Positions 1 to 35,620 of a stretch of 35,620 nucleotides of DNA are shown here, in pieces (within the stretch, counting starts at the first letter, position 1; each line of letters opens with the position of its first letter). The notes beneath the pieces were generated by a model. That model was not told the DNA's origin. It saw nothing but the letters and a program-made list of their open reading frames with translations, and ran no database searches. The DNA comes from Reclinomonas americana ATCC 50394 (Eukaryota): contig PS015064.1 of assembly GCA_048213135.1 (NCBI GenBank), positions 117,060 to 152,679 of the forward strand, read 5' to 3'. The position numbers and the translations under genes were made by a program.

Positions 1-363
1 GATGGTCGACACATCGTGAGTGGGAGTGGAGACAGCACCGTGCGAGTATGGTCTCTGGAGAGTGGAGAGGAAGTGCGACGGCTGGAGGGGCACACTGGAT
101 GGGTGTCATCTGTGGCCGTCTCTCCCGATGGTCTCCACATTGCGAGTGCTGGTGGCCAAGACAATAGCGTGCGAGTGTGGTCCACACCGCGTGGCCTTGC
201 CTGCCTCGAACTCGACGCCGCGCGCTCGGCCATGCTGGCTATGCAGGAGATGCAGGAGGAGGAGAGGGCCACCGAGGAGGAAGTAGATTCACGACGTCTT
301 CCCGAGCTGGTTCTGCGCTGCTTCATCGTCGAAGATGCCGAGGTTGTCCTTTTTCGGTGCTGA
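1..363 (+). CDS. Stand-alone WD40 beta-propeller protein, tandem copy 1 (3' part only; 5' end lies outside the window)
   Basis: Frame-1 ORF from base 1 reads DGRHIVSGSGDSTVRVWSLESGEEVRRLEGHTGWVSSVAVSPDG...VRVWS, then the tail PRGLACLELDAARSA...LPELVLRCFIVEDAEVVLFRC* that copies 2 and 3 also have. Confidence 0.9.
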   Translation, partial: DGRHIVSGSGDSTVRVWSLESGEEVRRLEGHTGWVSSVAVSPDGLHIASAGGQDNSVRVWSTPRGLACLELDAARSAMLAMQEMQEEERATEEEVDSRRLPELVLRCFIVEDAEVVLFRC

Positions 364-2271
364 GTCGGTGAGGCGAAGAGTGGGAAGGTGGCCGCTGGTG
401 ATCTTGAGTTGTTTTTTCGTGTCTTGTGCGGGGGTGCGGGTGGTTATGCGAGTGCTGGATGGGGGAAGAGAGAAGGCAGAGAGGTCGTTGTTGATGATGA
501 TGAATTGCTCACCGTGCTTGTTGTCCTGTCATGTGAATGTGAGTGTGGGCGTGAAGGATATCTCTCTCTCTCTCTCTGGATGCGTGTCTCATTCTCACCT
601 CCATTTTGTGTGCAAGCGCGACGGGTCCCTTGGGAGTCTGTTGTGTCTTTTTGTCTCGTTGTGATGTCTGTTGTGCGTATCTTTCATCGTGCATGTATGT
701 GTCTCAGGAAAGCGAGTGCCGGTGATTGTTTTCTCGCGTATTATTTTGCGTACTTCGTTGGCGTCACTGCTCTGCTTCCCATTGTGCATTTGTGCCGGTG
801 ATGTTCTCCTTCTGGCTCAGCAGGGTTCATGTCATTCCGATCTCGAGCCCTCCTTCCCTGTCCCTTGTAGAGTCTCTCTCTCTCTCTATCTCTGTCGTCT
901 CCCTCCTTTGTGCGCTCATCATCTTCCCCAGTCATCCACCCCATCCTTCCCGCACACGCTCAAGGCCGAGCATGCTGGTCTGCTCACGATGCACCGATTG
1001 CCATCCTGCCAGTCCAACATGGTGAGCTTCCCGACACCGAAGTGTGTGGGGTGGTTGACTACGTGCTGACTTTGCTCCCTCTCCTTTGCAGGATGGATGT
1101 GTATGCAGAAAACGTCCCTTGGCTTGCCTCTGACCAAACGCGTATTGGTATCAGGTGCTGATCGGTGTGTTCGTCACGTGAGACGGAACAGATATCTCTC
1201 TCCTTCCTCCATTCCTTTGCTCACATCGATATCGCACTGACATGCAGATGTCTTGGTAAACACGTGTTCCTCGTCGTTGTTTCGTGACGATGACTGGCGC
1301 GCTTGTGCATCGCCTGTTGTCGGCTGTCACCGCACTCTCTCGGCTCCCCATCCGCATCCCATCATGCGCGAAGCAGTTGTGTGGCCCTGTTCTTCGTGAT
1401 CTCTCTTTCCTTCTTCCCTCCCACTCACCTCATTCATGCAGGCCGTGCATGTCATTGAGTACGTGGCGTGGGTGGGTGCACACATGCGTGTCGTGCTGTG
1501 CGATGGTGGCCTGGTCGGTGGATCGTTTTCAATCCCGGCTGGCAAGTCGGAGCGGATCGATGATGTTTTTTCACCTTGGCTGCCGCCGTCTCCGCCGAGT
1601 GATGATGCTGGTGGCCATGGAAGACTGCAGACGCGTGCTCGGCAATCTACTCATGGGTTGACTCATGCGTGTCGTGTTTCCCGATGGGTGGCCTGGTCGG
1701 TGGATGGTTCTCGATCCCGGTTGGCAAATCAGAGCGGATCGATGGTGTGCGCACCTTGGTTGCTGCTGTCACTGTCGAATGACGATGGTGGTGGCCATGG
1801 GAGACTGCTGGCGTGTGCGAGGCCAGCAACACATGGTTTGTGCGTGTTCTGTGTCTGCGTTGAGGAACAAGTTGACGAGGTATGGAGGTTGACTGACTCA
1901 GTTCTGTGTGTGATCTGAACGCAGTCGTGTTGGGAAGTGACTGGCATGCGAAGACACGTGGTTCCGTGCCACACAGTGCATGCATGAGACAATGCACCGA
2001 CCGACTGTGAGTGTGATTGAAGGCACGAGGCATTGATTGTGACTTGGGTGAGAGGAGGCGAGTCACACGACCAAGCTGCCTCTTCCATGTGGTCGCTCCT
2101 TTCCTGTTCCTTGTGGCTCTCTCCTCCCTGTGTCATCATCGTGCCCCTCATCATGCTCTCTGTGGGCCAATCCAAGGACGAGTAAGGCATGTCGATGACT
2201 CCTGTGCTCATTGGATTCTCGGGTGTGCTATGCTGTGGCATCTGCACAACAATCGGGCCGGCGCCACAGCT
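364..2271 (+). repeat. Downstream part of the tandem segmental-duplication unit, copy 1
   Basis: Colinear similarity by eye to 5536-7973 and 9503-11189 (shared gtgatgtctgttgtgcgt, ggcctggtcggtggatcg, gagtgtgattgaaggcacga). Similarity to copy 2 ends at ggcgccacagct (2271 vs 7973). Confidence 0.9.
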
Positions 2272-2433
2272 GACGTGAGGATTACGCGACCAGGTCTGCC
2301 AAAGTTAAGAGGTCGTTGCCGTACGAACTTTGGCTTGCAGGTACGGTAGCTGTCCAGGCGAACACATGTCTCTTTCCACATGATGGCGATCACTGCTCGA
2401 TGCTCGTTGTTGTGTATACGGATTAATGAAGTT

Positions 2434-3831
2434 TCATTGTGCGTGGACAGGCTTCTGCTCGACGGAGGATGCCGTCGGTATGTCCAGGCCAGGAGCGGTG
2501 GGGCGAGACAACAGCCACTCGGGCGCCTTGAAACCCGTCTGGCTCTCGATCGTATCCAACATCGGCACCATCGACTGTGCCAAACTGCGAATCGTGGCGG
2601 GACCCGTGGTCGGATCATGACTCCACACCGTGATCTTGGGCTCCAGACCTTGAATAGCACGGGCATTGGCCTCGGCCAGCTTCTCGTACACATTCTTCTC
2701 CACCATCAGGTGGGTGATGAAACCACGCACATCGCCGTTGAAGGCGACCATCATGCTCTGCAGACCACTGGCCTGTCCGTTGTAGAACGCTTGCACGCCT
2801 TCCGCTTCCTTGAGCTTGGCGTACAACTCAGCCTCGGCCCTGATACGCAGGGCGCTCGCTTCGCCCTCTGCATCCTTGATCAGGCGCTCGGCAAGTACGC
2901 GGCTCGTGGACAGGACGTCGGCACGCTGGCGTTCCACCTCCATCTCCTGCCTCTTGGCCTCCACATCTCGCTCCAACGCCATGCTCAGCGACTTGGCCTC
3001 CTGTGCCGCCCGGATCTTGGCAGTTTCTGCCACCAGGGCCTGCTCGTGTTGCGTCTTGGCCAGGGTGGCTTTGGAGCGCAGAATCTCCTGCTGCCGCTCG
3101 TTTTCGATCAACTGAGTCTCGGCTTCGATCTGGGCCGTGCGTTGACGCTTCTCCGCCTCGCGCTCCTTGGCTCCAATGTCGCCCAACTTGACTTGCTCGG
3201 CTACCTCAATCTTGGCTCGGTTCTCCGCCTCGGCCTGGATGCGCTGACTCAACGACTTGAAGTAGTTGGAAGCGGGACCGTCCTTGAGCTCCTCAATGTT
3301 GGCGTTGTAGACCTCCAAGCCGTACTGGTTCAGCTGCGACTGCACATTGTCAAGCACGTCACGCTTGAACTGTGTGCGGGCGGCGAAAATGGTCTCCACG
3401 GGCAGGTTGGCGGCGACGGAGCGAGCCTCGCCCTCAATGATGCCACTGACGACGCGCAGGCGGTCGTTGCTCTCTTGATTCAGCAGGAAGCGTGCGTACT
3501 TGGCCAGGTCCGCCTCCGTGTTGCGTGGGCCCAGGGTAAAGACGGCCGGAAAGCGGAACTCCATCTTCTCCACCGACATGGCATTCACGGCAAACGAGAA
3601 TGTCGAGGGCGACATGTCGATCGTCTGGATGTTCTGGAAGGGGAGGCGGAAAAAAGTCTTGCCGATGGCCATATCCTTCACAAAGATGCCTGTCTTGACG
3701 AGCACCTCGTGGGCACGGGCGGTGTGCAGTCGTCCGACCATCAGCGCGCTCACAGCCGCTCCGGCGATCAGGATGCCGCCGCCGACCTTGACAGAGTTGG
3801 GAATCTGATCCAATGTCGTCGACAACGTCAT
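2434..3831 (-). CDS. Flotillin-like SPFH/band-7 protein, plant/fungal FLOT type, ~465 aa, intronless
   Basis: Uninterrupted ORF from ATG 3831. Motifs VNAMSVEKMEFRFPAVFTLGP, GIIEGEARSVAA, VQSQLNQYGLEVYNANIEEL and NRAKIEVAE..KLGDIGAKER match from memory the plant FLOT motifs [33 protein letters not shown] and LNQFGLVIYNANVKQL. Has an EA-rich coiled coil and an N-terminal hydrophobic segment. Confidence 0.93.
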   Translation of the reverse strand: MTLSTTLDQIPNSVKVGGGILIAGAAVSALMVGRLHTARAHEVLVKTGIFVKDMAIGKTFFRLPFQNIQTIDMSPSTFSFAVNAMSVEKMEFRFPAVFTLGPRNTEADLAKYARFLLNQESNDRLRVVSGIIEGEARSVAANLPVETIFAARTQFKRDVLDNVQSQLNQYGLEVYNANIEELKDGPASNYFKSLSQRIQAEAENRAKIEVAEQVKLGDIGAKEREAEKRQRTAQIEAETQLIENERQQEILRSKATLAKTQHEQALVAETAKIRAAQEAKSLSMALERDVEAKRQEMEVERQRADVLSTSRVLAERLIKDAEGEASALRIRAEAELYAKLKEAEGVQAFYNGQASGLQSMMVAFNGDVRGFITHLMVEKNVYEKLAEANARAIQGLEPKITVWSHDPTTGPATIRSLAQSMVPMLDTIESQTGFKAPEWLLSRPTAPGLDIPTASSVEQKPVHAQ

Positions 3832-4010
3832 TGTTCTGCGCGCGGTCTTTCGCACACAACAAACAGGCGCAGCGCTAGCGACGAGAGAAATTTACACTGT
3901 AGTGCAAGTCCAGAAGACACAGCGGGGGAGCTCGAAGCGAACCTGCGGTGAATCTGCGGCCAATATGTGCTAGTTTTTATCTAAAAAGTCTTGGGTTGGT
4001 TCTCGCTTTC

Positions 4011-4110
4011 AAGCCGATGCATCGATGCATGCAAGCGCATGCGCACGCGCTGATCATGAGCTCGCGATCGATATCGCGCAGCGATATCGCGATGTACCGC
4101 AATATCTCGC
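4011..4110. promoter_or_regulatory. Palindrome-dense putative bidirectional promoter between the divergent flotillin and WD40 copy 2 genes
   Basis: ATGCATCGATGCAT (4017-4030), GCGCATGCGC (4035-4044), CGATATCG (4069-4076) and GCGATATCGC (4081-4090) lie in the ~530 bp between the two ATGs. Promoter function is inferred from position only. Confidence 0.4.
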
Positions 4111-4363
4111 TCACATTGCAGGTTGAGAATGGAGCTCCGCGACGAGGACGCGGAGAGACAGGGGGCACTGAGACACAGACAGCACCGCGAGGCGCACGCA
4201 CACGCGCGCGAGAGAGTTGAAGTTGATGTTCCGTCGGATGAATCAGCCTGCTTCACACACATAACACACTACACGCACACGCACGCACACGACACACACA
4301 CACCCTCTCTCTCACACACACGCACTCTCTCTCTCTCTCTCACACACACGCACACACCGGAGA

Positions 4364-5535
4364 ATGGCAACAAAGGTGTGAATGTATGCGCACTTTGCGT
4401 GGTTGGTGTCGACGTCTGTGCGTGCATTCGTGTGCTCGTGCATGTGTGCGGTTGCTCTTTGTGTGTGTATGTTTGTGTGTGCGCGTCTCACCGTGAGTGC
4501 TTGATACAGATCATTCAGAGTCTCGATGTGGTACGATCCGTCGCCGTCACGCCCGATAGCAAGCACATTGTTGGCGGATGCATGGACAGTTCCGTCCGAG
4601 TGTGGTCACTGGCGAGTGGCAAGGAGGTGCGACGGCTGGTGGGACACACTGCAAGGGTGATGTCTGTCGCCGTCACCCCAGATGGCAAGCATGTTGTCAG
4701 TGGCGGCTGCGACAACACAGTGCGGATGTGGTCTCTGGCGAATGGGGAGGAGGTACGACGTCGACGGCTGGAGGGCCACGCCGACATGGTGATGTCTGTC
4801 GCAGTCACTCCTGATGGCCAGCACATTGTCAGTGGGAGCTGGGACAACACAGTGAGGGTGTGGTCGCTGGCGAGTGGCAAGGAGGTGCGACGGCTGGTGG
4901 GACACACTGCAAGGGTGATGTCTGTCGCCGTCACCCCTGATGGCCAGCATGTCGTGAGTGGGAGCGAAGACAGCACCATGCGGGTATGGTTGCTGGCGAG
5001 CGGCGAAGAAGTGCGGCGGTTGAAGGGACACACTGACTGGGTGATTTCAGTCGCTGTTACTCCCGATGGTCAGCACATCGTGAGTGGGTGTGGAGATAGT
5101 ACCGTGCGGGTATGGTTGCTGGAAAGTGGAGAAGAAGTGCGACGATTGGAGGGACACACAGGATATGTGTGGTCTGTCGCCGTCACTCCCGATGGCCAAC
5201 ATATCGTGAGTGGGGGTGGGGACTGCACAATTCGGATGTGGTCTCTGGAGAGTGGAGAGGAAGTGCGACGGTTTGATGGTCACACTGGATGGGTGTCGTC
5301 TGTGGCCGTCTCTCCCGATGGTCAGCACATTGTGAGTGGAGGTGGCCAAGACAAGACAATACGAGTGTTGTCCATGCCGCGTGGCCTTGCTCGCCTCGAA
5401 CTTGACGCCGCGCGCTCGGCCCTGCGAGCGGTGCAGGAGATGCAGGAGGAAGAGGTAGATTCACGATGCCTTCCCGAGCTGGTTCTGCGCTGTTTCATCG
5501 TCGAGGATGCCGAGGTCGTCCTTTTCCGGTGCTGA
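4364..5535 (+). CDS. Stand-alone 7-repeat WD40 protein, tandem copy 2 (~345 aa; exons 4364-4375, 4510-5535)
   Basis: ATG GCA ACA AAG|gtgtga...gatacag|ATC ATT CAG gives a phase-0, 134-nt intron. Seven ~42-aa repeats follow (consensus LASGEEVRRLEGHTxxVxSVAVTPDGQHIVSGxxDxTVRVWS), then a ~50-aa tail. Copy 3 has the same MATK micro-exon. Confidence 0.92.
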
Positions 5536-7023
5536 GTCGGTGAGTCGGAAGGGAGAGCGGTGGCTGCTGGTGATTGTGAGTTGTTTTTCGTGTCTTGCGA
5601 GGGAGAGTGGGTGGTTGTGCGGGTTGCTGATGAGGGAAGAGAGGATGACAGAGGAGGAGAGAGAAGTCGATGTGGATGATGATGAATTGTTCTCTGCGTA
5701 CTGTTGCCCTGTCTTGTGAATGCGGGTGTGCGGGCGTGAAGCATGTCTCTCTCTGCATGCGTGCCTCTTTCTCACCTCAGTTTGTGTGTGCGAGCGCGAT
5801 GAATCACTTGGGAGTCTGTTGTGTCTTTTTCGTCTCGTTGTGATGTCTGTTGTGCGTGCATCTTTCATCGTGCATGTGTGTGCCTCAGGAGAGCGAATCA
5901 CCGATATTTGTTTCGCCGCGTCTTGTTTTGCACACCACCTGGGCGCCACTACTCTGCTTCCCATTGTGCGCATGCATGTGTAACATTCGCCACGCCCCCC
6001 CCCCCTTTTTTCGTCATGTCCGAAAACACATATAGTCCCCTGGTGACCGGGTGACGGGTTGAGCGACGGAGCAAGGGTCAAGGGTCAAGGGTAAAGGGTA
6101 AGAGAACAACTATAGAGTCACACTATAAGGGTATCAAAAGATANNNNNNNNNNNNNNNNNNNNNNNNNNNNNNNNNNNNNNNNNNNNNNNNNNNNNNNNN
6201 NNNNNNNNNNNNNNNNNNNNNNNNNNNNNNNNNNNNNNNNNNNNNNNNNNNNNNNNNNNNNNNNNNNNNNNNNNNNNNNNNNNNNNNNNNNNNNNNNNNN
6301 NNNNNNNNNNNNNNNNNNNNNNNNNNNNNNNNNNNNNNNNNNNNNNNNNNNNNNNNNNNNNNNNNNNNNNNNNNNNNNNNNNNNNNNNNNNNNNNNNNNN
6401 NNNNNNNNNNNNNNNNNNNNNNNNNNNNNNNNNNNNNNNNNNNNNNNNNNNNNNNNNNNNNNNNNNNNNNNNNNNNNNNNNNNNNNNNNNNNNNNNNNNN
6501 NNNNNNNNNNNNNNNNNNNNNNNNNNNNNNNNNNNNNNNNNNNNNNNNNNNNNNNNNNNNNNNNNNNNNNNNNNNNNNNNNNNNNNNNNNNNNNNNNNNN
6601 NNNNNNNNNNNNNNNNNNNNNNNNNNNNNNNNNNNNNNNNNNNNNNNNNNNNNNNNNNNNNNNNNNNNNNNNNNNNNNNNNNNNNNNNNNNNNNNNNNNN
6701 NNNNNNNNNNNNNNNNNNNNNNNNNNNNNNNNNNNNNNNNNNNNNNNNNNNNNNNNNNNNNNNNNNNNNNNNNNNNNNNNNNNNNNNNNNNNNNNNNNNN
6801 NNNNNNNNNNNNNNNNNNNNNNNNNNNCTCTCTGTTTCTCCGCCGTCTTCCTCCTTTGTGCGCTCACCATCTTCCCCAGTCGTCCACCCCTCCTTCCCGC
6901 ACAAGCTCGAGGCCGAGCATGCATGTTGGTCTGCTCAAGATGCGCTGACTTCCATTCTGCCTTCTGCGAGTCCATGATGGTGAGCATTCCGATACCGAAG
7001 TGGCATGACTGCATGCTGACTCT

Positions 7024-7058
<35 letters not shown>

Positions 7059-7973
7059 GGATGGATGTGTGTGCAGAAACGTACCTCGCCTTGCCTCATG
7101 ACCAGCCGTGTGTTGGCATCAGGTGCTTATCGGTGTGTTCGTCAGCGAGACAAGAGCTCCTCTTCTTCCATTCCTTTGCTACAGCACACCGACATGCAGA
7201 TACCTTGGAGGCACGTGCTTGCCGTCGGCCGTTACTGGGTATCACCTCACTCACTCGGCTCCCCGCTCGTATCCCACCATGCACGAAGCAGGTCTGTGGC
7301 CTTGTTCGTCTTGATCTCTCTTTCCTCCTTCCCTTCCACTCACCTCATTCATGCAGGTCGTGCATGCTATGGAGGGCGTGGCTGGCCATGGGTGTACGTA
7401 TGCATGCCGTGCTGTGCGATGGGTAGCCTGGTCGGTGGATCGTTGCAATCCAGCCTGGCAGGTCTGCGCGGATCGATGGTGTGCGCACCTTGGCTGCTGC
7501 TGCTGTCACTGTCGAGCGACGATGGTGGTGACTGCAGGCACGTGCGAGGCCAGCAACTCATGGTGGGCGCGTATTCTACTCCTGCGTTGAGGAACAAGTT
7601 GACGAGACTTGGAGATTGACTGACTCAGTGCTGCAGGCGTGTTGGCAAGTCGAAGACACGGGGTTCCGTGCGTCACAGTACTTGCGTGAGACGATACACC
7701 GACCGACTGTGAGTGTGATTGAAGGCACGAAGCATTGATTGTGACTTGAGTGAGAGGAGGCGAGCCTCACGACACAGCTGCCTCTTCCATCGCTGTGCTA
7801 CTGTGTTGGTCGCATCTCTTCTGTTCCTTGTGGCTCTCTTTCTTCATTATACCATCTTCGTGTGCGCCTCATCAACCTCGCTGTGGGCTGGTTCAAGGAG
7901 GTGTGCGGTTTCGATGACTCGGTGATGGATTGTGTGGCATCAGCACAACAGGGCCATGGCAGGCGCCACAGCT
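5536..7973 (+). repeat. Downstream part of the tandem unit, copy 2 (interrupted by an insertion and a gap)
   Basis: Colinear with 364-2271. Similarity breaks at ~5978 and resumes after the gap at 6828. Confidence 0.88.
5979..6143 (+). mobile_element. Left end of an insertion specific to copy 2, possibly an LTR
   Basis: Absent from copies 1 and 3. Begins TGTAAC (LTRs typically start TG), contains C and T homopolymer runs and (AAGGGTC/AAGGGTA)x4, then runs into gap 6144-6827. The right end and any target-site duplication are not visible. Confidence 0.4.
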
Positions 7974-8332
7974 TTATATATTACATCCAACAGACCGACA
8001 TTCCAGTCCTCATTGAGAGAGAATACAGGACAGTCGAAATGAAGTATCGCTGGGCATGCACGGAGCAATGGAGCGCCACCTTGTGTCACCACCAACACCC
8101 TGCTTGTCCATTCTGCCCATATCGACATCGCATGGACGAGTCCCAAATCGGTCTTCGAAAGCCCGCACGCATCAAAGAAGCCACATTGCTCTCATACTGC
8201 TGTATGTTGTGCGGGGTGCTGGTTGCAGCCTGGCGAGGGATGGACGACGTCTCGGAGCAAGGCGGGAGAAGAAAGGCGGGATGGAAACGGTGACAAGTCC
8301 GAGCGAGCAAATCACACACACACACACGGAGA

Positions 8333-9502
8333 ATGGCAACAAAGGTGTGATGTGTGCGCACTTTTGCGTGGTTGGTGTCTATGTGTGCATCCGTGTGCTT
8401 GTGTATGTTTGCAGTTGTTGTTTGTGTATGTGTGTACTTGTCGTCGAATGATGCTGTGTGTGTGTCTCACCACCAGCGTTTGGCTCAGATCATTCAGAGT
8501 CCCGCTGCAGTGCGGTCCGTCGCCGTCACTCCCGACGGCAAGCACATTGTTGGTGGATGTATGGACAAGACGATTCGAGTGTGGTCTCTGGCGAGTGGAG
8601 AAGAAGTGCGACGGCTGGAGAGAGACATTGGTCCGGTGTGGTCTGTCACTGTTACTCCCGATAATCAGCACATTGTGAGTGGGTGTGGAGACTGTACCGT
8701 ACGTGTGTGGTCGCTGGCGAGTGGAGAAGAGGTACCGGTGCGACGGCTGGAGGGACACACCAATGCGGTGGCGTCTGTCGCCGTCGCCCCTGATGGCCAG
8801 CACCTTGTTAGCGGGAGCTGGGACTGCACAGTACGGGTGTGGTCTTTGGCGAGTGGAGGCGAGGTGCGACGGCTGGAGGGGCACACCGATAAGGTCTGGT
8901 CAGTCGCCGTCACCCCTGATAGTCAGCACATTGTGAATGGGGGTGGAGATCATACCGTGCGAGTGTGGTTGCTGGCGAGTGGGGAAGAAGTGCGACGGCT
9001 GGAAGGACACACTGACTGGGTGCACTCTGTTGCCGTCACCCCCGACGGTCGGCACATAGTGAGTGGGAGTGGGGACCGCACCCTGCGAGTGTGGTCGCTG
9101 ACGAGTGGGGAAGAAGTTCGACGGTTGGAAGGACGCACTGGATGGGTGCAGTCTGTCGCTGTCACCCCCGATGGCCAGCACATTGTTAGCGGGAGCGAGG
9201 ACAGCACCATTAGGGTGTGGTCTTTGGCGAGTGGCGAGGAAGTGCGACGGTTGGAAGGTCACACTTATACGGTAGTCTCTGTAGCCGTCTCTCCTGACGG
9301 TCAGCATATTGTGAGTGCGGGTGGCTACGACAAGACCGTACGAGTGTGGTCCACGCCGCGTGGCCTTGCCCGTCTCGAACTCGACTCGGCCATGCATGCT
9401 GTGCAGGAGATGCAGGAAGGAGTAGATTCACGATGTCTTCTCGAGCTGGTTCTGCGCTGCTTCATCGTCGAGGATGCCGAGGTCGTTCTTTTCCGGTGCT
9501 GA
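8333..9502 (+). CDS. Stand-alone 7-repeat WD40 protein, tandem copy 3 (~341 aa; exons 8333-8344, 8489-9502)
   Basis: ATG GCA ACA AAG|gtgtga...ggctcag|ATC ATT CAG gives a 144-nt intron. Seven WD repeats follow, then the tail PRGLARLELD...LLELVLRCFIVEDAEVVLFRC*. Confidence 0.92.
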
Positions 9503-10070
9503 GTCGGTGAGTCGGAAGGGAAAGAGGGTTGGCTGCTGGTGACTGTGAGTTGCTATTCGTGTCTTGCGAGGGAGAGTGGGTGATCATGCGGTGCAGATGA
9601 TGGGGGGAGAGTGGACGACAGAGGAGGAGAGAGATTGCAGTTGATGATGCAGAATTTCTCACCGTGCTTGTTCCCCTTTCATGTGCACGTGAATGTGATT
9701 GTGCGGGCGTGGAGCATGTCTCTCTCTGTCTTTCTCACCTTCATTTGTGTGTGCAAGCGGGAGACGGTGGAGAAAGAGAGGAGACTCTGCAAGGAACAGA
9801 AAGGGAGGAACGAAGAGACATGCATTCTTCAGAGCCGGAAGGCGAATGAGATGGATTGCTTGGTAGTCTGTTTTGTCTTTCTGTCTCGGTGTGATGTCTG
9901 TTGTGCGTGCATCTTTAGTCGTACATGTATGTGTCTCAGGAGAGCGAGTGACCGACGTCTATTTTCTCGCATCTTGTTTTGCGCACCACTTTGGCATCAC
10001 GGCTCTGTGTCCCATGGGCGCGTGCTCCGTGGGCATTCTGCCTCTTGCTCTGAGGAATGCCTGTCATTCC

Positions 10071-10108
<38 letters not shown>

Positions 10109-11189
10109 TTTCTCCACCGTCTTCCTCCCTTGTGCGCTCATTTGCCTCCCCAGTCATCCACCCCATCCTTCCCGCACAAGCTCGATCCGAGTATCTGCTC
10201 AAGATGCGCCGGCTATGATTCAGCCATCACGTTGGGCAGTCTATCATGGTGAGCATTTCGATACCAAAGTGTGTGAGGTGGCGTAACTGCCGACTGAGTC
10301 TGCTCTCTCTCTCTCTTCTCTTGTAGGAGGTTGTGTGTGCAGAAGCTTCCCTCGTCTTGCCTCTTGAGCAAACCGCGTGTTGGTATCTGGTGCTGATCGG
10401 TGAGTTTGTCAGGTGAGACAGAGCAGATGTCTCTCCTCTTCCTCCGTTCCTTTGCTCACAGCGCACCGACATGCAGGCACCTTGGAAGCACGTTCCCCTC
10501 GTTGTTCCGTGACGATGACAGACGTGCTGTGCATCGCCCATTGCCGGCTGTCACCTCACTCACGCGACTCCCCACCCGCATCCCACCATGCACGAAGCAG
10601 GTGTGTGGCCTTGTTCGTGTCGTAATCTTTCTCTCTCCTCCTTCCCTCCCACTCACATCATTCATGCAGGTCGTGCTTGTCATGCAGAGTGTGGCTGGGT
10701 GGATGTACACATGTGTGTCGTGATGTGCGATGGATGGCCTGGTCGGTGGATCGTTTTTGAATCCCGGGCTGGCAAGTCGGAGCGGATCGATGGTGTGTGC
10801 ATCTTGGTTGTTGCTGTCACTGTCGAGCGACGATGGTGGTGGCCATGGGAGACTTACACGTGCTCGGCTAGCAACATGTGGTGAGTGCATATTCTGCGCC
10901 TGCGTTGAGGAACAAGTTGGCGAGACTTGGAGATACTGACTTTGTTCTATGTGTGATCTGAACACAGGCGTGATGGCAAGTAACTGGCCACTGGCACGCA
11001 TGCAGCATGGCAACTCGTGGTTCCGTGCCTCACAGTACACGCGTGAGACGATTCACCGACCGACTTTGAGTGTGATTGAAGGCACGAGGCATTGGTTGTG
11101 ATTTGGGTGGGAGGAGGCGAGTCTCACAACACAGCTGCCTCGTCCATCGCTGTGCTGCTGCACTGGTCACTCCTTTCATGTTCCTTGTG
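9503..11189 (+). repeat. Downstream part of the tandem unit, copy 3
   Basis: Colinear with copies 1 and 2 up to ...ctcctttcatgttccttgtg. Carries a private ~100 bp purine-rich insertion near 9760-9860. Confidence 0.88.
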
Positions 11190-11394
11190 TATGTAACAAG
11201 AGTGCTCTGGCACACGAGCGTGGGGGTGTATTCATCGCTACGAATAATAATTGCTCGCTGCGAAGAACTCTCTGCATATCATTCAAAACAAACCACCACA
11301 ACAGCTAAGAAAAACGATGCCTCGGCTATCTCTCCTACTCTTGCAGCCAATGTCTCTTCTCCAACCTCTCCTTCTCTCTCTCTCTCCCACTCAC

Positions 11395-14300
11395 TCAATC
11401 ACGACGCACGTTCGTAAAATCTGGCAAAAAGGAACCCACAATTCGCTGCAACAGCGGCTGCGCTGGTGGGCCGGCATGTGCCCCGTACTCTCTCGCCTCT
11501 CCGTCCTGCTTCAAGCTCCACATCCGCATCGTACGGTCGTTTCCACCAGCTACGATCCAGCGTCCACACGGCGACATTGCTGCCGTGAGCACCGCGCCAC
11601 CAAACGCATCGAGTCGATGTACTTCCTTGCCGGCACCATCACCAATCACCGACCACATTCGCACGGTGCCGTCGTCGCTAGCCGACAGGATGTGGCTCCC
11701 GTCGGCAGTCAGTGTCACAGAATTGATCCACTTGGCGTGTCCGACTAGCTCGCGCACGCATTCGCCAGTCGAGGCAGACCAAACACGCACCGTCGCGTCG
11801 GCGCTTCCCGACACAATGTGCTCGCCGTCGGGCGTGACGGCAACAGAGACCACATTGCCACGGTGCCCACGAAGTCGTCGCACTTCACGACCACGAGGTT
11901 CGACAGTGGACCACACATGTAATGTGTCGTCGCTGTTGGCCAGTACCACGTGCTGTCCGTCAGGCGTCAGGGCCACGCCATTGAGAAACTGTGTGTCGAC
12001 TGCTATGCATTGTAGCTCCTCGCCACTTGCTAAAGACCACACGCGCACAGTTTCGTCAAAACTGCCCGACACGATACGCTCGCCGAGAGAGTCCACCAAC
12101 ACTGACGTCACGCGATCGAGATGGCCGGCGCACTGCCGTATCTCTTCGCCAGTGCTTGCCGACCACACCCGCACCGTTCGGTCGTAGCTGCCGGAGACCA
12201 CGAATCGACTGTCGGGCGTCGTGGTCACAGTGCCGACTTCGCCTGTGTGGCCGAGCAGCCGTTGCAACTCTTCGCCGTTTGTCACAGACCATATGCGCAC
12301 TGTACGGTCTTGACTGCCAGTCACAATGAGGTTGCCATCCGACGAGACCGACACCGACAGGACCCAGCCAGCGTGGCCGTTGAGTCGTCGTACTTCCTCG
12401 CGGCTGGCCAGTGACCACTGTCGCAATGTGCGATCCCAGCTTCCCGACACGATAAGCCGACCATCGGGTGACACCGACAGTGATCCCACAACTTCCGAGT
12501 GACCCTCGAATCGACGAACCTCTTCGCCGCTGGCCAACGACCACACGCGAATCGTCTTGTCGTGACTTCCGGACACTACGTACTGCCCGCCGGGGAGCAT
12601 CGACAGGGTCCACACCCAACCAGTGTGACCTTCCATACGGCGCACCTCTTCGCCTGTCGCAAAAGACCACACTCGCACCAACTGGTCTTCGCCACTCGAC
12701 ACGATGTACTCGCCGTTTGGTGACACCATCAGCGACCACACCCAACCGGCAGCCACGTTCACGCATCGCACTTCCACGCCAGTGGCGACGGACCACACTC
12801 GCAAGTTGCCATCTTCGCCGCCAGAGACTACGTGCTGGTTGTCGGGGGTAACCGCGACTGCACGCGCTTCGCCAGCGTGCCCACGCAGTTTCCACAGCGC
12901 ATCGCCGCTAGCGAGCAGCCAGATGCAGACGACGGAATCGCGACCGGCAGACGCTGCGTGCTGTCCATCCGTCGAGACCGCCACAGCATTTACGGGACTG
13001 GAATGGCCCACCATCTCTCGCACTGGTTGATCACCACTGATTAAGGACCACATGCGCACTGAGCGATCTTCGCTGGCAGAAAGCACATACTGGCCGTCGG
13101 TCGTCACTGCCACTGACGTCACACGGTTCGTGTGGCCCACAAACTTCTTCACCTGCTTGCCACTGGTGAGTGACCACACGCGCACAGACCGGTCGTCGCT
13201 ACCGGATACCACGTGCAGACCATCCGGAGTCACCGCCACCGACGACACGCGATCCGAGTGACCCTCTATGGGCTTCCTCGGCCACATGACGCCCTCAACA
13301 TGGGCATCACGAAAGTCGGCATCACGAGCAAACGCCAAAGACAAGTTTGCATGGCTCAGATCCGCTCCGCACCACACCGATCCGTGCATCACAGCGTCGC
13401 GCAAATCCGCACCGCGCACTCGAACACCTGACAGATCGCGTGCCGAGAAGGAAACCTCCGCCAGGCAGAGGGCGCTGGCGGCGCTCGACGCCACGGTACC
13501 GAGCCATTCCTCCGATCGCGAGCGAGACAGTGCGATAGAGTGCCACAGTGACTTCTGCAACGCGTCGTCACCGCGCAATCGATCCGCAACAAACGAAAGA
13601 ACCGAGTCGAGTCCCTTCCACCACAAGGCAAGCCAGTGAGTTGATGATGACGACAACACAGAAGATAGCGGCCACGCGTGCTCAACTTCATCGCCACCGG
13701 CAAGTGCTCGTCGACCAGTGAACCCGGATCCGGAGCCGACACGATCCATACGATCCTACGCAACAAGAAAGTGATACAACTGAGTGATGCGTAGAGTAAA
13801 GAACTCTCAGCTGTCGCCTAACCTGCAAGTCAATGTGCTCCAGCGCCAGAAGTTGCACATCAGCCATCCATGCCTGTGCCGCAAAGAATTCCAGCACCGA
13901 CTTGTGCATGAACTCCACTCGCTGCCCCATCGCGCCGAGTTGGCTCCACTTGAGCAAAGCCTTGAAGGAGTGAGAGAGAGAGAGAGAGATGAACTCAGAT
14001 TGCATTTCCAGGTGTGTAACGAGGGATAAGAAAGAGCATAAAGGCAACAGAGCAAGATAGACAGCAATGTACAACCACGCAATCATACACGAAACTGCAC
14101 GAACTACGGTATTCTGCACGTCATCGTCACGCGAAAACCGATCGGACCAAAGATGCCACATGGCGGAGCCATGCTGTGAATGCAGCGTTAGTGCATCAAG
14201 AGGCAACTTATCGGAAAACAAGACGAGTCGAATACCTCGCTTTGCTGCACAAATGTAAGCGAGTGCTGCATCATGTCGCTGGCCAACTCGGCACAAAAGT

Positions 14301-14791
14301 CCCACACGCGTTCACTAAACTGCGCTTCGTCGACCTCGTCACCAAACACCTATTGCACATGCGCATGGCTGAGATCGCTTCTGCAGCAGATACACGCACG
14401 CACACACACACATTCACACCTGTCGTATGTTCACTTGATGATGCACAAATTCCCAGTGTATCTTGCGCCGGGCGAACAGATCATACAGAAAACTGCGAGT
14501 CACCCGTCGCGTTGCCGCATGTTGTAGCTCCTCCAGCACCAGGACAATCATATTCAACGTTAAAGGCTGCAAGCAGAATGCAGTAAGTCTTATAGAACAC
14601 ATACAGCGAGGGAGAGAGAAAAAACATGCGATGCGTGATAGGAGAGACACTGATGCACCACAGTGCAGCTGCGAATACACAATCAACTGCACTGCAAATA
14701 TGGACTCTCGCCAGTTCAGATCAATGTGACAGCACGCGACAGATAAAGTGCATACCATGAACAGTATTGTAGAGACAAACAACTGAAGAAC

Positions 14792-14831
<40 letters not shown>

Positions 14832-14898
14832 CCGCACCACAAATCACACAGAACTCAAGAACGCACAGAGCAAGATGGGTAGCGTGCGTGCACGAAGG

Positions 14899-14946
<48 letters not shown>

Positions 14947-15807
14947 TGCAAAAGAGATTCGACAACTCACCGATCTCGACAATTCTGCTAGTCCGGGAAC
15001 CTGACAGATTTGCCGCTTCAAGTCTCCTGACGAGTGCGCTCCCGGACGCGTCTCGGCAAACCTGTGGCAAGAGCAGACACGCAAGAAATCATCATTTCAG
15101 CTTCTCGACTGCGCCTGTATCCGACCGTTGAGATGAAGAACCAAACTTTTGCAGGAACAAATCAACGTCGGCGTCGGCAAAATGTCGCAAGATACAACGT
15201 GCCAACGTGCGCTCTTGCTGTGCAAAGCGCTCGGCTCGTGACAATGTCGGATTGACCGGAGAGAAGCACTGCTCAGCCCAGAAATTGCCGATTCGACTGA
15301 TGAGCTCGCGTCGGACAGACACAACGACCAAAACATTGGGATACCGCTGGAAAGGAAAGAATTCTGCGAGTAAGTGCATGTACAGATGATAGCCCACAAC
15401 TGTAGGACACAACAAAACCTCCAGTTCATGATGAACATAGAGATTGCCCGGTATTTCACCACACTCGTCGTACCCGTCGAGAATAAGCACAACAGTGCCG
15501 ATACGATCAAACTGTACACCGAATGTCAGTAAGATAAGCCTATAAGGCTCGTGAAGATGCATACGTGCACACATACACGCACCTCTTCATCGAGATGCAG
15601 AAAGAGTCGTTCATCTCCAACAGCCGCGTTAGTCTGCCGCAGTAGGTACGGCAACAGCTCACCCGGCTGATCAAGTACTTCGCGTCGAGGTATGCTCGGC
15701 AGCCGTGCCCACAACACAAGCGTGTCAGGGCGCTGCTGTAATCCACCGGCCAGCTGCCGTAGGAGAACTGACTTTCCGCCACCCGACCAGCCGGCTACAA
15801 CCATGAC
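11395..15807 (-). CDS. STAND/NLR-like NACHT NTPase with pentapeptide repeats and 14 WD40 repeats (core; exons 15807-15583, 15511-15419, 15346-15147, 15061-14971, 14566-14420, 14349-14236, 14173-14096, 13960-13823, 13755-11395)
   Basis: Walker A VVAGWSGGGKS, Walker B VVLILDGYDE, sensor-1-like VVVSVR, helical-domain SRS|PLTLNMI and winged-helix FMHKSVLEFFAA. These are followed by pentapeptide repeats (ARDLSGVRVRGADLRDA..GADLSHANLSLA) and 14 GH...WS repeats. Intron phases are mutually compatible. Confidence 0.88.
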
Positions 15808-16039
<232 letters not shown>

Positions 16040-16095: not shown

Positions 16096-17617
16096 TTCCT
16101 GCAGTACGGCGATCGAGTGTACATTGGGCATCCGGCTTCAGTGGGCTGGGTGTTGATCGAAGGGTGTGTCTGCCACCGCTGTGTGTGTGAGAGAGAGGCT
16201 GCTCACTCATTTGCAATCGTGAACGCGCCCGCAGAGCCTCCAGCGACGGTGTCGGTGTGATGCGCAACAGGTTTGTCTGTGTGTCACGCCGCGCTTTCAC
16301 GAGCCTGTAACTCGAGTATTGCTGTTCCTTAGCTTTCTGCTGTCGCCCTCCCACTTCTCACGTCTCTCCCAACACACGCTTCCTCCTACCTTCACTTCTG
16401 TTTTTTTCGACACGTCCAGTTCTTGTGGTTCTCCTTGCTCTTCCCCTTCTTCCCCCTCTTCTTCTTCTTGTACTTCTTGTTCTCCCTCTCTCTCTCTCTC
16501 TCTCTTCTTCTTCTTCTTCTTCTTCTTCTTCTCCNNNNNNNNNNNNNNNNNNNNNNNNNNNNNNNNNNNNNNNNNNNNNNNNNNNNNNNNNNNNNNNNNN
16601 NNNNNNNNNNNNNNNNNNNNNNNNNNNNNNNNNNNNNNNNNNNNNNNNNNNNNNNNNNNNNNNNNNNNNNNNNNNNNNNNNNNNNNNNNNNNNNNNNNNN
16701 NNNNNNNNNNNNNNNNNNNNNNNNNNNNNNNNNNNNNNNNNNNNNNNNNNNNNNNNNNNNNNNNNNNNNNNNNNNNNNNNNNNNNNNNNNNNNNNNNNNN
16801 NNNNNNNNNNNNNNNNNNNNNNNNNNNNNNNNNNNNNNNNNNNNNNNNNNNNNNNNNNNNNNNNNNNNNNNNNNNNNNNNNNNNNNNNNNNNNNNNNNNN
16901 NNNNNNNNNNNNNNNNNNNNNNNNNNNNNNNNNNNNNNNNNNNNNNNNNNNNNNNNNNNNNNNNNNNNNNNNNNNNNNNNNNNNNNNNNNNNNNNNNNNN
17001 NNNNNNNNNNNNNNNNNNNNNNNNNNNNNNNNNNNNNNNNNNNNNNNNNNNNNNNNNNNNNNNNNNNNNNNNNNNNNNNNNNNNNNNNNNNNNNNNNNNN
17101 NNNNNNNNNNNNNNNNNNNNNNNNNNNNNNNNNNNNNNNNNNNNNNNNNNNNNNNNNNNNNNNNNNNNNNNNNNNNNNNNNNNNNNNNNNNNNNNNNNNN
17201 NNNNNNNNNNNNNNNNNNNNNNNNNNNNNNNNNNNNNNNNNNNNNNNNNNNNNNNNNNNNNNNNNNNNNNNNNNNNNNNNNNNNNNNNNNNNNNNNNNNN
17301 NNNNNNNNNNNNNNNNNNNNNNNNNNNNNNNNNNNNNNNNNNNNNNNNNNNNNNNNNNNNNNNNNNNNNNNNNNNNNNNNNNNNNNNNNNNNNNNNNNNN
17401 NNNNNNNNNNNNNNNNNNNNNNNNNNNNNNNNNNNNNNNNNNNNNNNNNNNNNNNNNNNNNNNNNNNNNNNNNNNNNNNNNNNNNGTACGACGTACTCCT
17501 CCTCTCTCTCTCTCTCTCTCTCTCCTCTTCCTTCTCTCCGTTTCCGTACTTAGTCTCGTCTTCTTCGTCTCTACTACGCGTCCCGTCCTCTACGACGACA
17601 CTTCGTACTTGTTACGT

Positions 17618-17665
<48 letters not shown>

Positions 17666-18099
17666 GTCCCTGTCTCTCATGCACACGAGCGCTACCACGC
17701 AACGAGACACTCCACGGCCGAGAGGTTGGTTGGGTCATCAGGCAGCGGAAGCACGGTGCGAATTGCAGTGGCGTCATGGAGTGCAGCAATCTTATGTGCC
17801 ACAATCTGCGGCGCTTCCGGCAATGGCGGTGGCAGCGGCGCCAGTGATACGGGTGGTGACGAAGAGACGACATCTGAGGCACCCACATCGAAATTGTCGT
17901 CCCCCGCAGTGACGGCCCGAGACGCTGCACAACCACCTCCGCACAGGCGCCGGCGTGAGCGCAGGAGATATCTGTGGGCAAAGAACACAAGGGTGAAAAG
18001 ATGATGCACATCCACATAACTCACGCACACATACACGCACGCACGCACACACACATACACACACACGCACGCACACACACACGCACACACGCACGCACG

Positions 18100-18142
<43 letters not shown>

Positions 18143-18650: not shown

Positions 18651-18720
18651 AATGCTGGAGGTCTCAAGAGTTTCGAGGAGTGCAGACGTATATTGTTTCA
18701 TTTGGTGAATGGTTTCACTC

Positions 18721-19866
18721 CACTGCAGCACCCTCCCCTCCTCGCTGTGTCGACTCTTGCTCTTGAAGCGGTGGCGGTGAGACCTTCGGTCTCATCGCCC
18801 CATCCCTCTCTGAGTCTACCTCTCCACATGCAACAGCGAGGAATCGGAGATACCTCCCTCACGTGAGCTGAGATGCAATGCATCCACCACTGCAGCACCC
18901 CCTCCCCTCCTTGCTGTGTCGACTCTTGCCCTTGAAGCGGTGGCGGTGAGACCCTTCGGTCTCACCGCCTCTTCACTCTCTGAGACGATCTCTTCACGTG
19001 TAACAGTGAGGAACCGGAGATACCTCCCTCACTGTGTGCCGAGATGCAATGCATCCACCACTGCAGCACCCTCCCCCTCCTCGCTGTGTCGACTCTTGCC
19101 CTTGAAGCGGTGGCGGCGAGACCTTCGGTCTCACCGCCCCATCCCTCTCTAGAGTCTATCTCTCCACATGCAACAGTGAGGAACCGGAGATACCTCCCTC
19201 ACCGTGTGCTGAGATGCAACGCATCCACCACTGCAGCACCCTCCCCCTCCTCGCTGCGTCGCCTCCTGTTCTCGCTCACCGCCCCATCCATCTCTGATCT
19301 CTCCACATGCAACAGTGAGGAACCGGAGATACCTCCCTCACCGTGTGCTGAGATGCAACGCATCCACCACTGCAGCACCCTCCCCTCCTCGCTGTGTCGA
19401 CTCCTGTTCTCTCTAACCGCCCCATCCCTNNNNNNNNNNNNNNNNNNNNNNNNNNNNNNNNNNNNNNNNNNNNNNNNNNNNNNNNNNNNNNNNNNNNNNN
19501 NNGCCCCATCCCTCTCTGAGTCTTATCTCCACATACGACAGTGTGGAACTGGAGATTCCTCCCTCACTGTGTGCCGAGATGCAATGCATCCACCACTGTA
19601 GCACCCTCCCCCTCCTCGCTGTGTCGACTCCTGTTCTCTCTCACCGCCCCATCCCTCTCTGAGTCGATCTCTCCACATGCAAGAGCGAAGAACCGGAGAT
19701 ACCTCCCTCGCCGTGTGCTGCGATGCAACGCATCCACCACTGCAGCACCCTCCCCCTCCTCGCTGTGTCGACTCCTGTTCTCGCTCACCGCCCCATCCCT
19801 CTCTGAGTCGATCTCCACGTGCAACTGTGAGACCAATGCCATCCCTCCTCTCGGAGCTGAATGCAT
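18721..19866. repeat. Minisatellite with at least 7 units of ~139-171 bp in two subtypes
   Basis: Anchor ctg(c/t)agcacc occurs at 18723, 18890, 19061, 19231, 19370, 19596 and 19740. Long units contain the hairpin ggcggtgagacc-(c)ttc-ggtctcaccgcc and short units lack its left arm. Confidence 0.95.
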
Positions 19867-26047: not shown

Positions 26048-34857
<8,810 letters not shown>

Positions 34858-35067
34858 GGAAAAAGAAAAACACAAATCGTTGTAAAAAAACAAATCACTT
34901 GCTTGTAACTTTGTTTGCATCCTGAAAGCGAAGATGACTGTTGGAGAAGTAGTTATGTGTTTGTATAGCCAAGGTCATTGTCGGCAAGGGATTTGATTGT
35001 TACGTAAACAGCTCTCGTCTGTCCCTTGTCCCGACTCTCTCGTTTGGCCTCGTTTTTTCCGCACACT

Positions 35068-35589
35068 ATGGGCGCGCCCGCAGCTGCCGCCGGCGACACC
35101 AAGCGACCACGCACAGGCACGAGCGCAAGAGGCGACACCAGCATCAACAACAACAACAACAGCAGCAAGGAGGACGACACGAGAAAGAGCTGCTGCACGG
35201 CGGTGGAGTCCAACAACGACCACGAGCATGACGACGAGGCACTTGTGCATCAGTGGGAGGGATGGGGCGAGCGGGAGGCGAGTGTGGTGTCGCGACACGA
35301 GGCACCGCATTGGATGGTCGACAATCCGTACTTGGAGCACGGGTATCGCGTGGCGCATTGCACGCGACGCGCGGTCATGTCGGTGGCCTCGGTGCACAAT
35401 GAGTTGACCAACATGTGGACGGCACTCGTGCCCGCCATCTACTGTGTGTGGTTGGTGGGAGGGTTGGTGGTGGGAGGTGCCGATGGCGATGGGTATTGGG
35501 CGAGGCAGACGGTCGGCGATCGCGGAGTGATGTTGTTGCTGGTGGTGGCGGAGTTGGTGTGCTTCTCGTGTAGTGCGCTGTTTCACACG
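35068..35589 (+). CDS. PAQR / haemolysin-III (adiponectin-receptor-like) membrane protein, first exon; continues beyond the window
   Basis: Open frame from ATG 35068 with PHWMVDNPYLEHGYR, SVHNELTNMWT and CFSCSALFHT, matching the PAQR motifs PxWxxDNxxIxxGYR, HNExxNxWT and SxxxH. Donor |gtgagg at 35590. Confidence 0.88.
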
Positions 35590-35620
35590 GTGAGGGAGGA
35601 GGGAGGGAGGAGGAGAGAGA

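Follow-up and report, generated by a model that had tools for sequence, protein, structure and literature searches.

An NLR-like gene beside a tandem family of stand-alone WD40 genes in Reclinomonas americana

We analysed a stretch of 35,620 nucleotides (nt) of the genome of the jakobid Reclinomonas americana ATCC 50394 (GenBank assembly GCA_048213135.1, contig PS015064.1, positions 117,060 to 152,679 of the forward strand), referred to below as the window. It carries a minus-strand gene (11395-15807) resembling those of nucleotide-binding oligomerisation domain (NOD)-like receptors (NLRs), which converges, tail-to-tail, on three plus-strand genes (A, B and C) encoding only WD40 repeats and a short C-terminal tail. 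We consider it probable, though far from secure, that this NLR-like gene of the STAND class (signal transduction ATPases with numerous domains) and an old tandem family of free propellers were both drawn from one lineage-specific, consensus-like stock of WD40 repeats, and that their adjacency is a by-product of local duplication.

Relationship between the NLR and array repeats

The residue that follows the conserved tryptophan of the repeat is serine (a WS ending) in 13 of the 14 NLR units and in 12 of the 16 stand-alone units, versus 170 of 3156 repeat ends (5.4%) in their 240 nearest relatives in the database. A careful maximum-likelihood tree was computed from 99 units and 42 columns. In it the window contributes 27 units, which need 6 label changes, compared with 23.9 in shuffles (none of 500 was as low), and NLR and stand-alone units interleave (e.g. 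B2, B4, N2, N3 and N13). A lineage-specific repeat type shared by the NLR-like gene and the array is plausible on these sequence grounds. The careful tree was used in place of a quick unit tree, which was poor (a constrained tree was better by 33.7 log-likelihood units), and a propeller-level phylogeny was dropped in favour of unit-level trees, since repeat registers slip in hmmsearch domains.

Several results weigh against a common origin of the two sets and against the interpretation built on it. The repeat tree is weakly resolved, with 59 of its 96 branches open, and none of 200 bootstrap trees placed the window units in one clade; in the approximately unbiased (AU) test such a clade was neither shown nor rejected (p 0.153). 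The protein encoded by gene B is 55% identical to the NLR propellers, versus 63% (over 279 residues) to the planctomycete (Gemmatales) protein P0128, which itself has an 81% identical full-length counterpart in a Gemmatales metagenome-assembled genome. For seven of the eight stand-alone units of 42 amino acids (aa), the highest-placed NLR unit comes only between 13th and 86th in the ranking of neighbours from outside the family. A common descent of the two repeat sets would thus rest on one shared residue state and a weakly resolved tree. Finally, in the AlphaFold2 model of B the conserved tail forms a low-confidence helix (residues 294-312), followed by a segment with a predicted local distance difference test score (pLDDT) below 50.

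The best matches of the stand-alone propellers among solved structures were the bacterial protein 2YMU (E 8.8e-131), the designed WRAP-T propellers and PkwA. As these are repetitive bacterial or designed propellers, much of the repeat "signature" represents the general consensus of idealised WD40 repeats. A preliminary description of this DNA, made from the sequence alone, had proposed a signature common to the NLR and stand-alone repeats, to be followed up by a repeat phylogeny. The rare WS ending and the clustering of the window units, with both sets interleaved, agree with that proposal, whereas the motif is not private to the locus, as the comparison with P0128 makes clear, and the single clade was not shown.

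Among other relatives, P0189 (ENA, 397 aa) is a stand-alone seven-repeat WD40 protein, 53% identical to B, with mixed WS and WL endings, a histidine after DG-x and no tail; it may come from a related eukaryote. The cluster of another database protein, P0197, names Salpingoeca infusionum. The jakobid WD40 proteins Gcp1-3, described as Pex7-like, were set aside as irrelevant.

Duplication, selection and repeat exchange in the array

Self-comparison of the window revealed three units, A (1-2201), B (4343-7920) and C (8313-11189), which align at 75-80% nucleotide identity and each include about 2 kb of 3' flank, the tandem duplication unit being ~3.7 kb long. The flank is non-coding: of the 33 indels that distinguish A from C there, 11 have a length divisible by three. 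Genes B and C differ with a ratio of nonsynonymous to synonymous substitution rates (dN/dS) of 0.22 (dS 0.64), and the tail alone with a ratio of 0.15, which indicates that both are maintained protein-coding genes. The array is therefore an old tandem duplication whose copies are under purifying selection. On the upstream side of the ATG, units B (from 4343) and C (from 8313) are homologous over ~21 nt only, the homology setting in directly behind a CA-rich run, so that promoter sequence is not common to the copies. An intact flotillin/Band 7 gene lies between units A and B and not between B and C, and was either inserted after the duplication or situated outside the duplicated unit.

Repeats of B and C are most alike when compared with their positional partners (mean 79% at the nucleotide level), and repeats 1, 3 and 7 keep both these partners and private indels. 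For repeat B2, in contrast, identity is 87% with B4 and only 69% with C2, its positional partner. An exact run of 71 nt (4609-4679 and 4867-4937) is common to B2 and B4; it was not reached in any of 2000 permutations, and theirs was the sole one of 66 pairs to pass correction; this tract is an intragenic conversion inside gene B. The synonymous difference between B and C is also higher in the repeats (0.46) than in the tail (0.24, Fisher p 0.007) or the intron (0.19, p 3e-7), which would fit past scrambling of repeats, although other causes are possible.

Between the NLR-like gene and the array, nucleotide identity is 57%, third-position identity 36% and the longest common run 15 nt. At the DNA level the two share nothing recent, and exchange between them seems no longer to occur. 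The gene-conversion analysis suggested in the preliminary description yielded a single tract within gene B and none linking the NLR with the array.

The same description had likened the locus to the fungal HET-D, HET-E and HET-R proteins (the HNWD family). In the excerpts of Paoletti et al. (2007, PMC1805685) available to us, the repeats of this family in Podospora anserina are conserved up to 100% within and between genes, evolve in concert across loci and carry four positively selected codons per repeat (7, 9, 25 and 27), while an excerpt of Dyrka et al. (2014, PMC4986451) defines high internal conservation as >85% identity across at least 100 aa. The locus studied here is similar in that a NACHT nucleoside triphosphatase (NTPase) is followed by 42-aa WD40 repeats whose variability is concentrated at top-face positions, with two of the published selected positions (7 and 25, by this reading of the numbering) among the most variable ones. 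In every respect tested, however, the analogy fails. Mean amino acid identity among repeats is only 42% in the NLR (maximum 67%) and 68% within the stand-alone genes (maximum 83%), and there is no concerted evolution with the NLR, as seen from the third-position identity and the 15-nt run given above. The dN/dS ratio is 0.55 at positions 7, 9, 25 and 27 versus 0.17 elsewhere (synonymous sites are near saturation, so the power is low) and 0.38-0.61 at the most variable sites, chosen post hoc; no class of sites exceeds 1, and position 9 is invariant. Moreover, the visible part of the NLR shows no HET domain, pentapeptide repeats lie between its NOD module and the WD40 repeats, and the fungal family, as far as the excerpts describe it, has no WD40-only members carrying a private tail.

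Organisation of the genes

Outside gaps, the G+C content of the window is ~56%. Runs of N interrupt it nine times, its introns are of the GT-AG type, and (CA)n and (CT)n microsatellites are numerous. It is organised as follows.

1-363, plus strand: 3' end of gene A, with its last two WD40 repeats, the conserved tail and a stop codon at 361-363
364-2201: 3' flank of duplication unit A, non-coding, with homologous counterparts behind B and C (~80% identical to that of C)
2434-3831, minus strand: single-exon flotillin/Band 7 gene, outside the WD40 family (Pfam PF01145, E 1.1e-21)
4364-4375, plus strand: gene B, predicted exon 1, which encodes MATK and precedes a GT donor
4376-4509, plus strand: gene B, predicted intron (134 nt, GT..AG), 81% identical to the C intron
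4510-5535, plus strand: gene B, exon 2, which encodes seven WD40 blades (residues 1-288) and a tail of 53 aa and ends with the stop codon
4609-4679, plus strand: conversion tract in repeat B2, 71 nt
4867-4937, plus strand: partner conversion tract in repeat B4
5536-7920: non-coding 3' flank of unit B, containing the N gap 6144-6827
8333-8344, plus strand: gene C, predicted exon 1, which encodes MATK and precedes a GT donor
8345-8488, plus strand: gene C, predicted intron (144 nt)
8489-9502, plus strand: gene C, exon 2, with seven WD40 blades, tail and stop codon
9503-11189: non-coding 3' flank of unit C
11395-13755, minus strand: NLR last exon, with linker, pentapeptide repeats (~13288-13461), 14 WD40 repeats (~11515-13296), a short tail and the stop codon
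13823-13960, minus strand: NLR exon containing ...VEFMHKSVLEFFAAQ..., a motif that marks the end of the NOD module
14236-14349, minus strand: NLR exon, helical part of the NOD module (model only)
14420-14566, minus strand: NLR exon (PLTLNMIVLVLEEL...), collinear with P0011 residues 990-1025
14971-15061, minus strand: NLR exon whose upstream junction is the least certain (weak donor at 15126)
15126-15511, minus strand: NLR exon carrying the Walker B motif (VVLILDGYDE); corresponds to positions 80-142 of the Pfam NACHT model
15583-15807, minus strand: NLR exon carrying the Walker A motif (GWSGGGKS); corresponds to positions 2-67 of the Pfam NACHT model and matches nSTAND_NTPase5 (E 2.6e-5)
15811-15933: (CA)61 microsatellite, situated in the intron that precedes the Walker A exon

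Only ~200 bp separate the end of array unit C from the NLR stop codon. The tail-to-tail layout is as the preliminary description had it: a NACHT-pentapeptide gene with 14 WD40 repeats facing at least three genes with seven repeats each. The sevenfold count was found in B and C; gene A is cut by the edge of the window, so that only its last two repeats lie inside and neither its seven repeats nor its leader are visible. The leader of four residues (MATK) and the lack of an NTPase, also described previously for the stand-alone genes, were borne out at the DNA level for B and C.

In both these genes the predicted first exon is the identical 12-nt ATGGCAACAAAG (encoding MATK), followed by a GTGTGA donor, and an in-phase AG acceptor is located 134 nt (B) or 144 nt (C) further on; the predicted splice joins MATK to IIQS... 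Seven repeats of 42-45 aa are then followed by a tail of 49-59 aa, and Pfam WD40 scores with E 7e-77 in B and 2e-77 in C. AlphaFold2, run on B with a 13-row alignment, returned a seven-blade propeller (block-mean pLDDT of at least 86 over residues 1-290, predicted template modelling score 0.83) with a strand at residues 2-3. In the alignment of units IIQS falls in the L-E-G-H columns. Together with the four-codon exon it would therefore take the place expected for the closing "velcro" strand of the last blade, which argues that the N-terminus of B and C is complete. As far as DNA can tell, both genes are NACHT-less: a second NACHT-like segment was not found anywhere in the window. Within the stand-alone units 17 of the 42 repeat positions are invariant and entropy peaks at positions 4, 5, 7, 23 and 25. 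These are the usual top-face positions, which would suggest that the propellers bind something, rather than that they are engaged in a race.

For the NLR-like gene, the predicted model of seven GT-AG exons (the last exon and six upstream ones) forms one open frame of 1153 aa, counted from Walker A. The last exon encodes 786 aa, in which Pfam counts 13 WD40 stretches and a unit-by-unit count gives 14 repeats; the pentapeptide family PF00805 scores 35.1 bits (cut-off 20.2) downstream of NACHT and directly before the first propeller. The Walker A motif at the start of its exon (GWSGGGKS) fits GxxxxGK[ST]. A Walker B motif consists of a hydrophobic run followed by an aspartate, a small residue and an acidic pair (DGxDE), and this is the form of VVLILDGYDE. 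The Pfam NACHT model (PF05729, 167 positions) was compared with single exons and not with the spliced protein; it gave 17.8 bits (positions 2-67) and 17.6 bits (positions 80-142), each below the cut-off of 26.7, the two hits being consecutive halves of the model. nSTAND_NTPase5 scored 24.5 bits on the Walker A exon.

Comparison of the whole 1153-aa model with P0011 gave one collinear alignment (28% over 1216 columns, E 4e-136), and that with P0088 from Mortierella sp. AD010 was also collinear (27%, E 1e-108). The NOD part alone (model residues 1-351) matched residues 793-1132 of P0011 (E 1e-16) and P0088 (E 8e-8), both of which carry PF05729. The gene thus appears to be a member of the broad NACHT-WD40 class, with both the NOD module and the C-terminal repeats present. 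No N-terminal domain was found in the visible sequence further upstream: from 15.9 to 24 kb the frames of the minus strand appear to be non-coding, and the frame 17577-18020 has no Pfam family match; the (CA)61 tract, further simple sequence and a gap of 951 N (16535-17485) are located upstream of the Walker A exon.

The linker and pentapeptide module of the NLR aligns with P0003, P0037, P0088, P0115 and P0011. In the giant WD40 proteins P0003, P0037 and P0115 this module occurs two or three times within a single protein, and a "pentapeptide cap plus propeller" therefore looks like a reusable supra-domain.

The conserved tail

The tail of A, B and C ends with ...CFIVEDAEVVLFRC. Its profile, compared with 1.84 billion representative sequences, had a sole match, the 116-aa product P0358 (EukProt EP00694, E 2.1e-17) of an expressed sequence tag (EST) from R. 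americana, and the WD40-tail family is therefore transcribed in this species. Over the last repeat and the tail, P0358 has 64% identity to gene A, and WS endings are found in its repeats too; it is a fragment, with a C-terminus that extends further than those of A, B and C. For the tail, neither a Pfam match nor a usable Atlas match was obtained, and a metagenome scan with the A/B/C alignment identified 8 loci (best identity 47%), none with the tail. The WD40-plus-tail family is thus new as a family, with one other member among the 1.84 billion representatives. Protein searches with the proteins of the window returned no near-identical relatives.

Pairing through an amyloid motif occurs in the fungal NWD2/HET-S pair. 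A similar pairing of the tail with the NLR was rejected for the visible sequence, since tblastn of the tail against the window found the three gene copies only and nothing significant in the visible NLR 5' region, the 951-N gap lying outside this test.

Comparison with known systems

NACHT-WD40 proteins are already known from fungi, animals, algae and bacteria, and an excerpt of PMC7145615 mentions NB-WD40 genes in bacteria and, for example, in the red alga Chondrus crispus. Closest in architecture to the NLR-like protein are P0088, P0037 (Linnemannia schmuckeri) and P0011, with an identical domain order and collinearity from Walker A through the WD40 repeats. These proteins come from fungi, unlike the protist NLR of the window; identity is only 27-28%, and the ~680-790 residues that precede their NACHT domain have no counterpart visible here.

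The best sequence matches of the stand-alone propellers, on the other hand, are the repetitive propellers of bacteria (2YMU, PkwA 5YZV, P0128) and WRAP-T. P0128 shares the scaffold VAVTPDG...VSGS.D.TVRVW...G.EVRR..GH with the stand-alone propellers. The bacterial proteins, however, have repeats that end in WD, WE or WN and not in WS, carry no tail, and are fused to a coiled coil, to FHA and membrane segments or to a kinase.

With respect to mechanism only, the NLR-like protein may be compared with APAF-1-type switches, in which, as the source excerpts describe them, a STAND NTPase carries WD40 propellers at its C-terminus; these sense a protein ligand and thereby permit oligomerisation. In APAF-1 the place of NACHT is taken by an AP-ATPase (NB-ARC) domain, and neither a CARD nor any other output domain was seen in the NLR studied here.

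Among the literature matches listed (titles and beginnings of abstracts) there was no WD40-only array beside an NLR in a protist. NACHT in combination with a jakobid was likewise not found among them, the only NACHT-containing match listed being a paper on the Euglena ribosome. An intact NACHT-pentapeptide-double-propeller gene in the jakobid lineage is a data point on the spread of NLR-like switches, and the WD40-plus-tail family offers a simple test case of whether sensor-type propellers can act apart from their NTPase.

Proposed scenario and alternative explanations

According to the scenario we favour, the NLR-like protein would be a STAND NTPase in which NACHT is followed by a helical linker, pentapeptide repeats and two propellers of seven blades each, and would act as a nucleotide-driven switch in which, by analogy with APAF-1, a ligand on the C-terminal repeats presumably releases oligomerisation. 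The three stand-alone genes would have arisen by tandem duplication of the ~3.7-kb unit, each encoding a free, closed seven-blade propeller with a private and strongly conserved tail of ~50 aa. Because the variability sits on the usual top-face positions, these propellers are most likely protein-binding adaptors in their own right. Repeats would occasionally convert each other inside the array, exchange with the NLR having ceased, and the proximity of the two loci would stem from local duplication of a repeat-encoding exon, rather than mark a working HET-E-like hypervariable recognition locus. Nothing in the sequence analysed seems to tie the locus to immunity or to allorecognition.

A functional partnership is unlikely in our view. 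In it the stand-alone propellers would serve this NLR or others as detached sensors, decoys or regulators, binding the same ligands via their variable top face and either handing them over to the NLR or competing with its sensor propellers. In its favour, the genes are adjacent and tail-to-tail, with ~200 bp from the end of unit C to the NLR stop codon, the rare WS ending is common to both sets, their units interleave in the careful tree and vary mainly at top-face positions, and three copies have been retained under purifying selection. Gene neighbourhood alone is nevertheless weak evidence, no sequence exchange between the NLR and the array was seen, the tail lacks a counterpart in the visible part of the NLR, the window holds only three copies of the tail, and the propellers resemble unrelated bacterial WD40 proteins equally or more. 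It is more doubtful still that sensor propellers of an NLR were released in the deep-branching jakobid lineage as free genes with a private tail, acting with NLRs in trans as decoys, guards or ligand-delivery adaptors; if true, this would be a split NLR system that evolved independently of those of plants, animals and fungi. We give very little credence to the idea that the array is a HET-E-like reservoir, evolving in concert with the NLR and shuffling repeats between the loci for the sake of recognition diversity in immunity or allorecognition. The conversion tract in gene B, the affinity of B2 to B4 rather than C2 and the synonymous divergence of the repeats in excess of the tail and intron can be cited for it, but the repeats stay below the published 85% criterion, the NLR and the array are too far apart at third positions and in shared runs, repeats 1, 3 and 7 keep their positional partners, conversion was signalled in only one of 66 pairs, and dN/dS is below 1 at the four HET-E sites as well as at the most variable ones. 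For this NLR-array pair, the reservoir and allorecognition model is thus largely refuted.

It could also be argued that the gene models are artefacts, the WD40-only frames being 3' parts of larger genes or decaying fragments of NLRs, given that the first exon has only four codons and was predicted from DNA, that B-C homology starts so close to the ATG that the promoters are not shared, and that gaps are present in the scaffold. We regard this as improbable. The dN/dS of 0.22 and the intact frames of B and C speak against decay, as do the identical ATGGCAACAAAG and GT with an in-phase AG acceptor in both copies and the position of the first residues at the expected "velcro" strand against truncated models. 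In addition, only ~530 bp lie between gene B and the start of the divergently oriented flotillin gene, the window has no second NACHT-like segment, and the Reclinomonas EST product spans the last repeat into the tail.

Other features of the window

The protein encoded by the flotillin gene reaches 58-61% identity to its best database matches. Upstream of the NLR gene there is a tandem satellite (18720-19265) with a unit of 170 bp, 3.2 copies and 89% matches, and, separated from it by an N gap, a related 144-bp array (19503-19815); neither has a coding signal. Long (CA)n/(TG)n tracts are located at 15811-15933, 18022-18141 and 30533-30662, and match one another at 88-100% simply as microsatellites, the one inside the NLR intron containing 61.5 perfect CA copies. 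Many introns are filled with such tracts and with (CT)n runs, which may account for the gaps in the assembly. Two exon-sized plus-strand frames belong to unrelated genes: that at 29294-29725 contains the start of a RhoGEF/DH domain (PF00621, 29.5 bits versus 27.6), and that at 35008-35619 the start of a Haemolysin-III/PAQR domain (PF03006, 28.5 bits versus 26.2).

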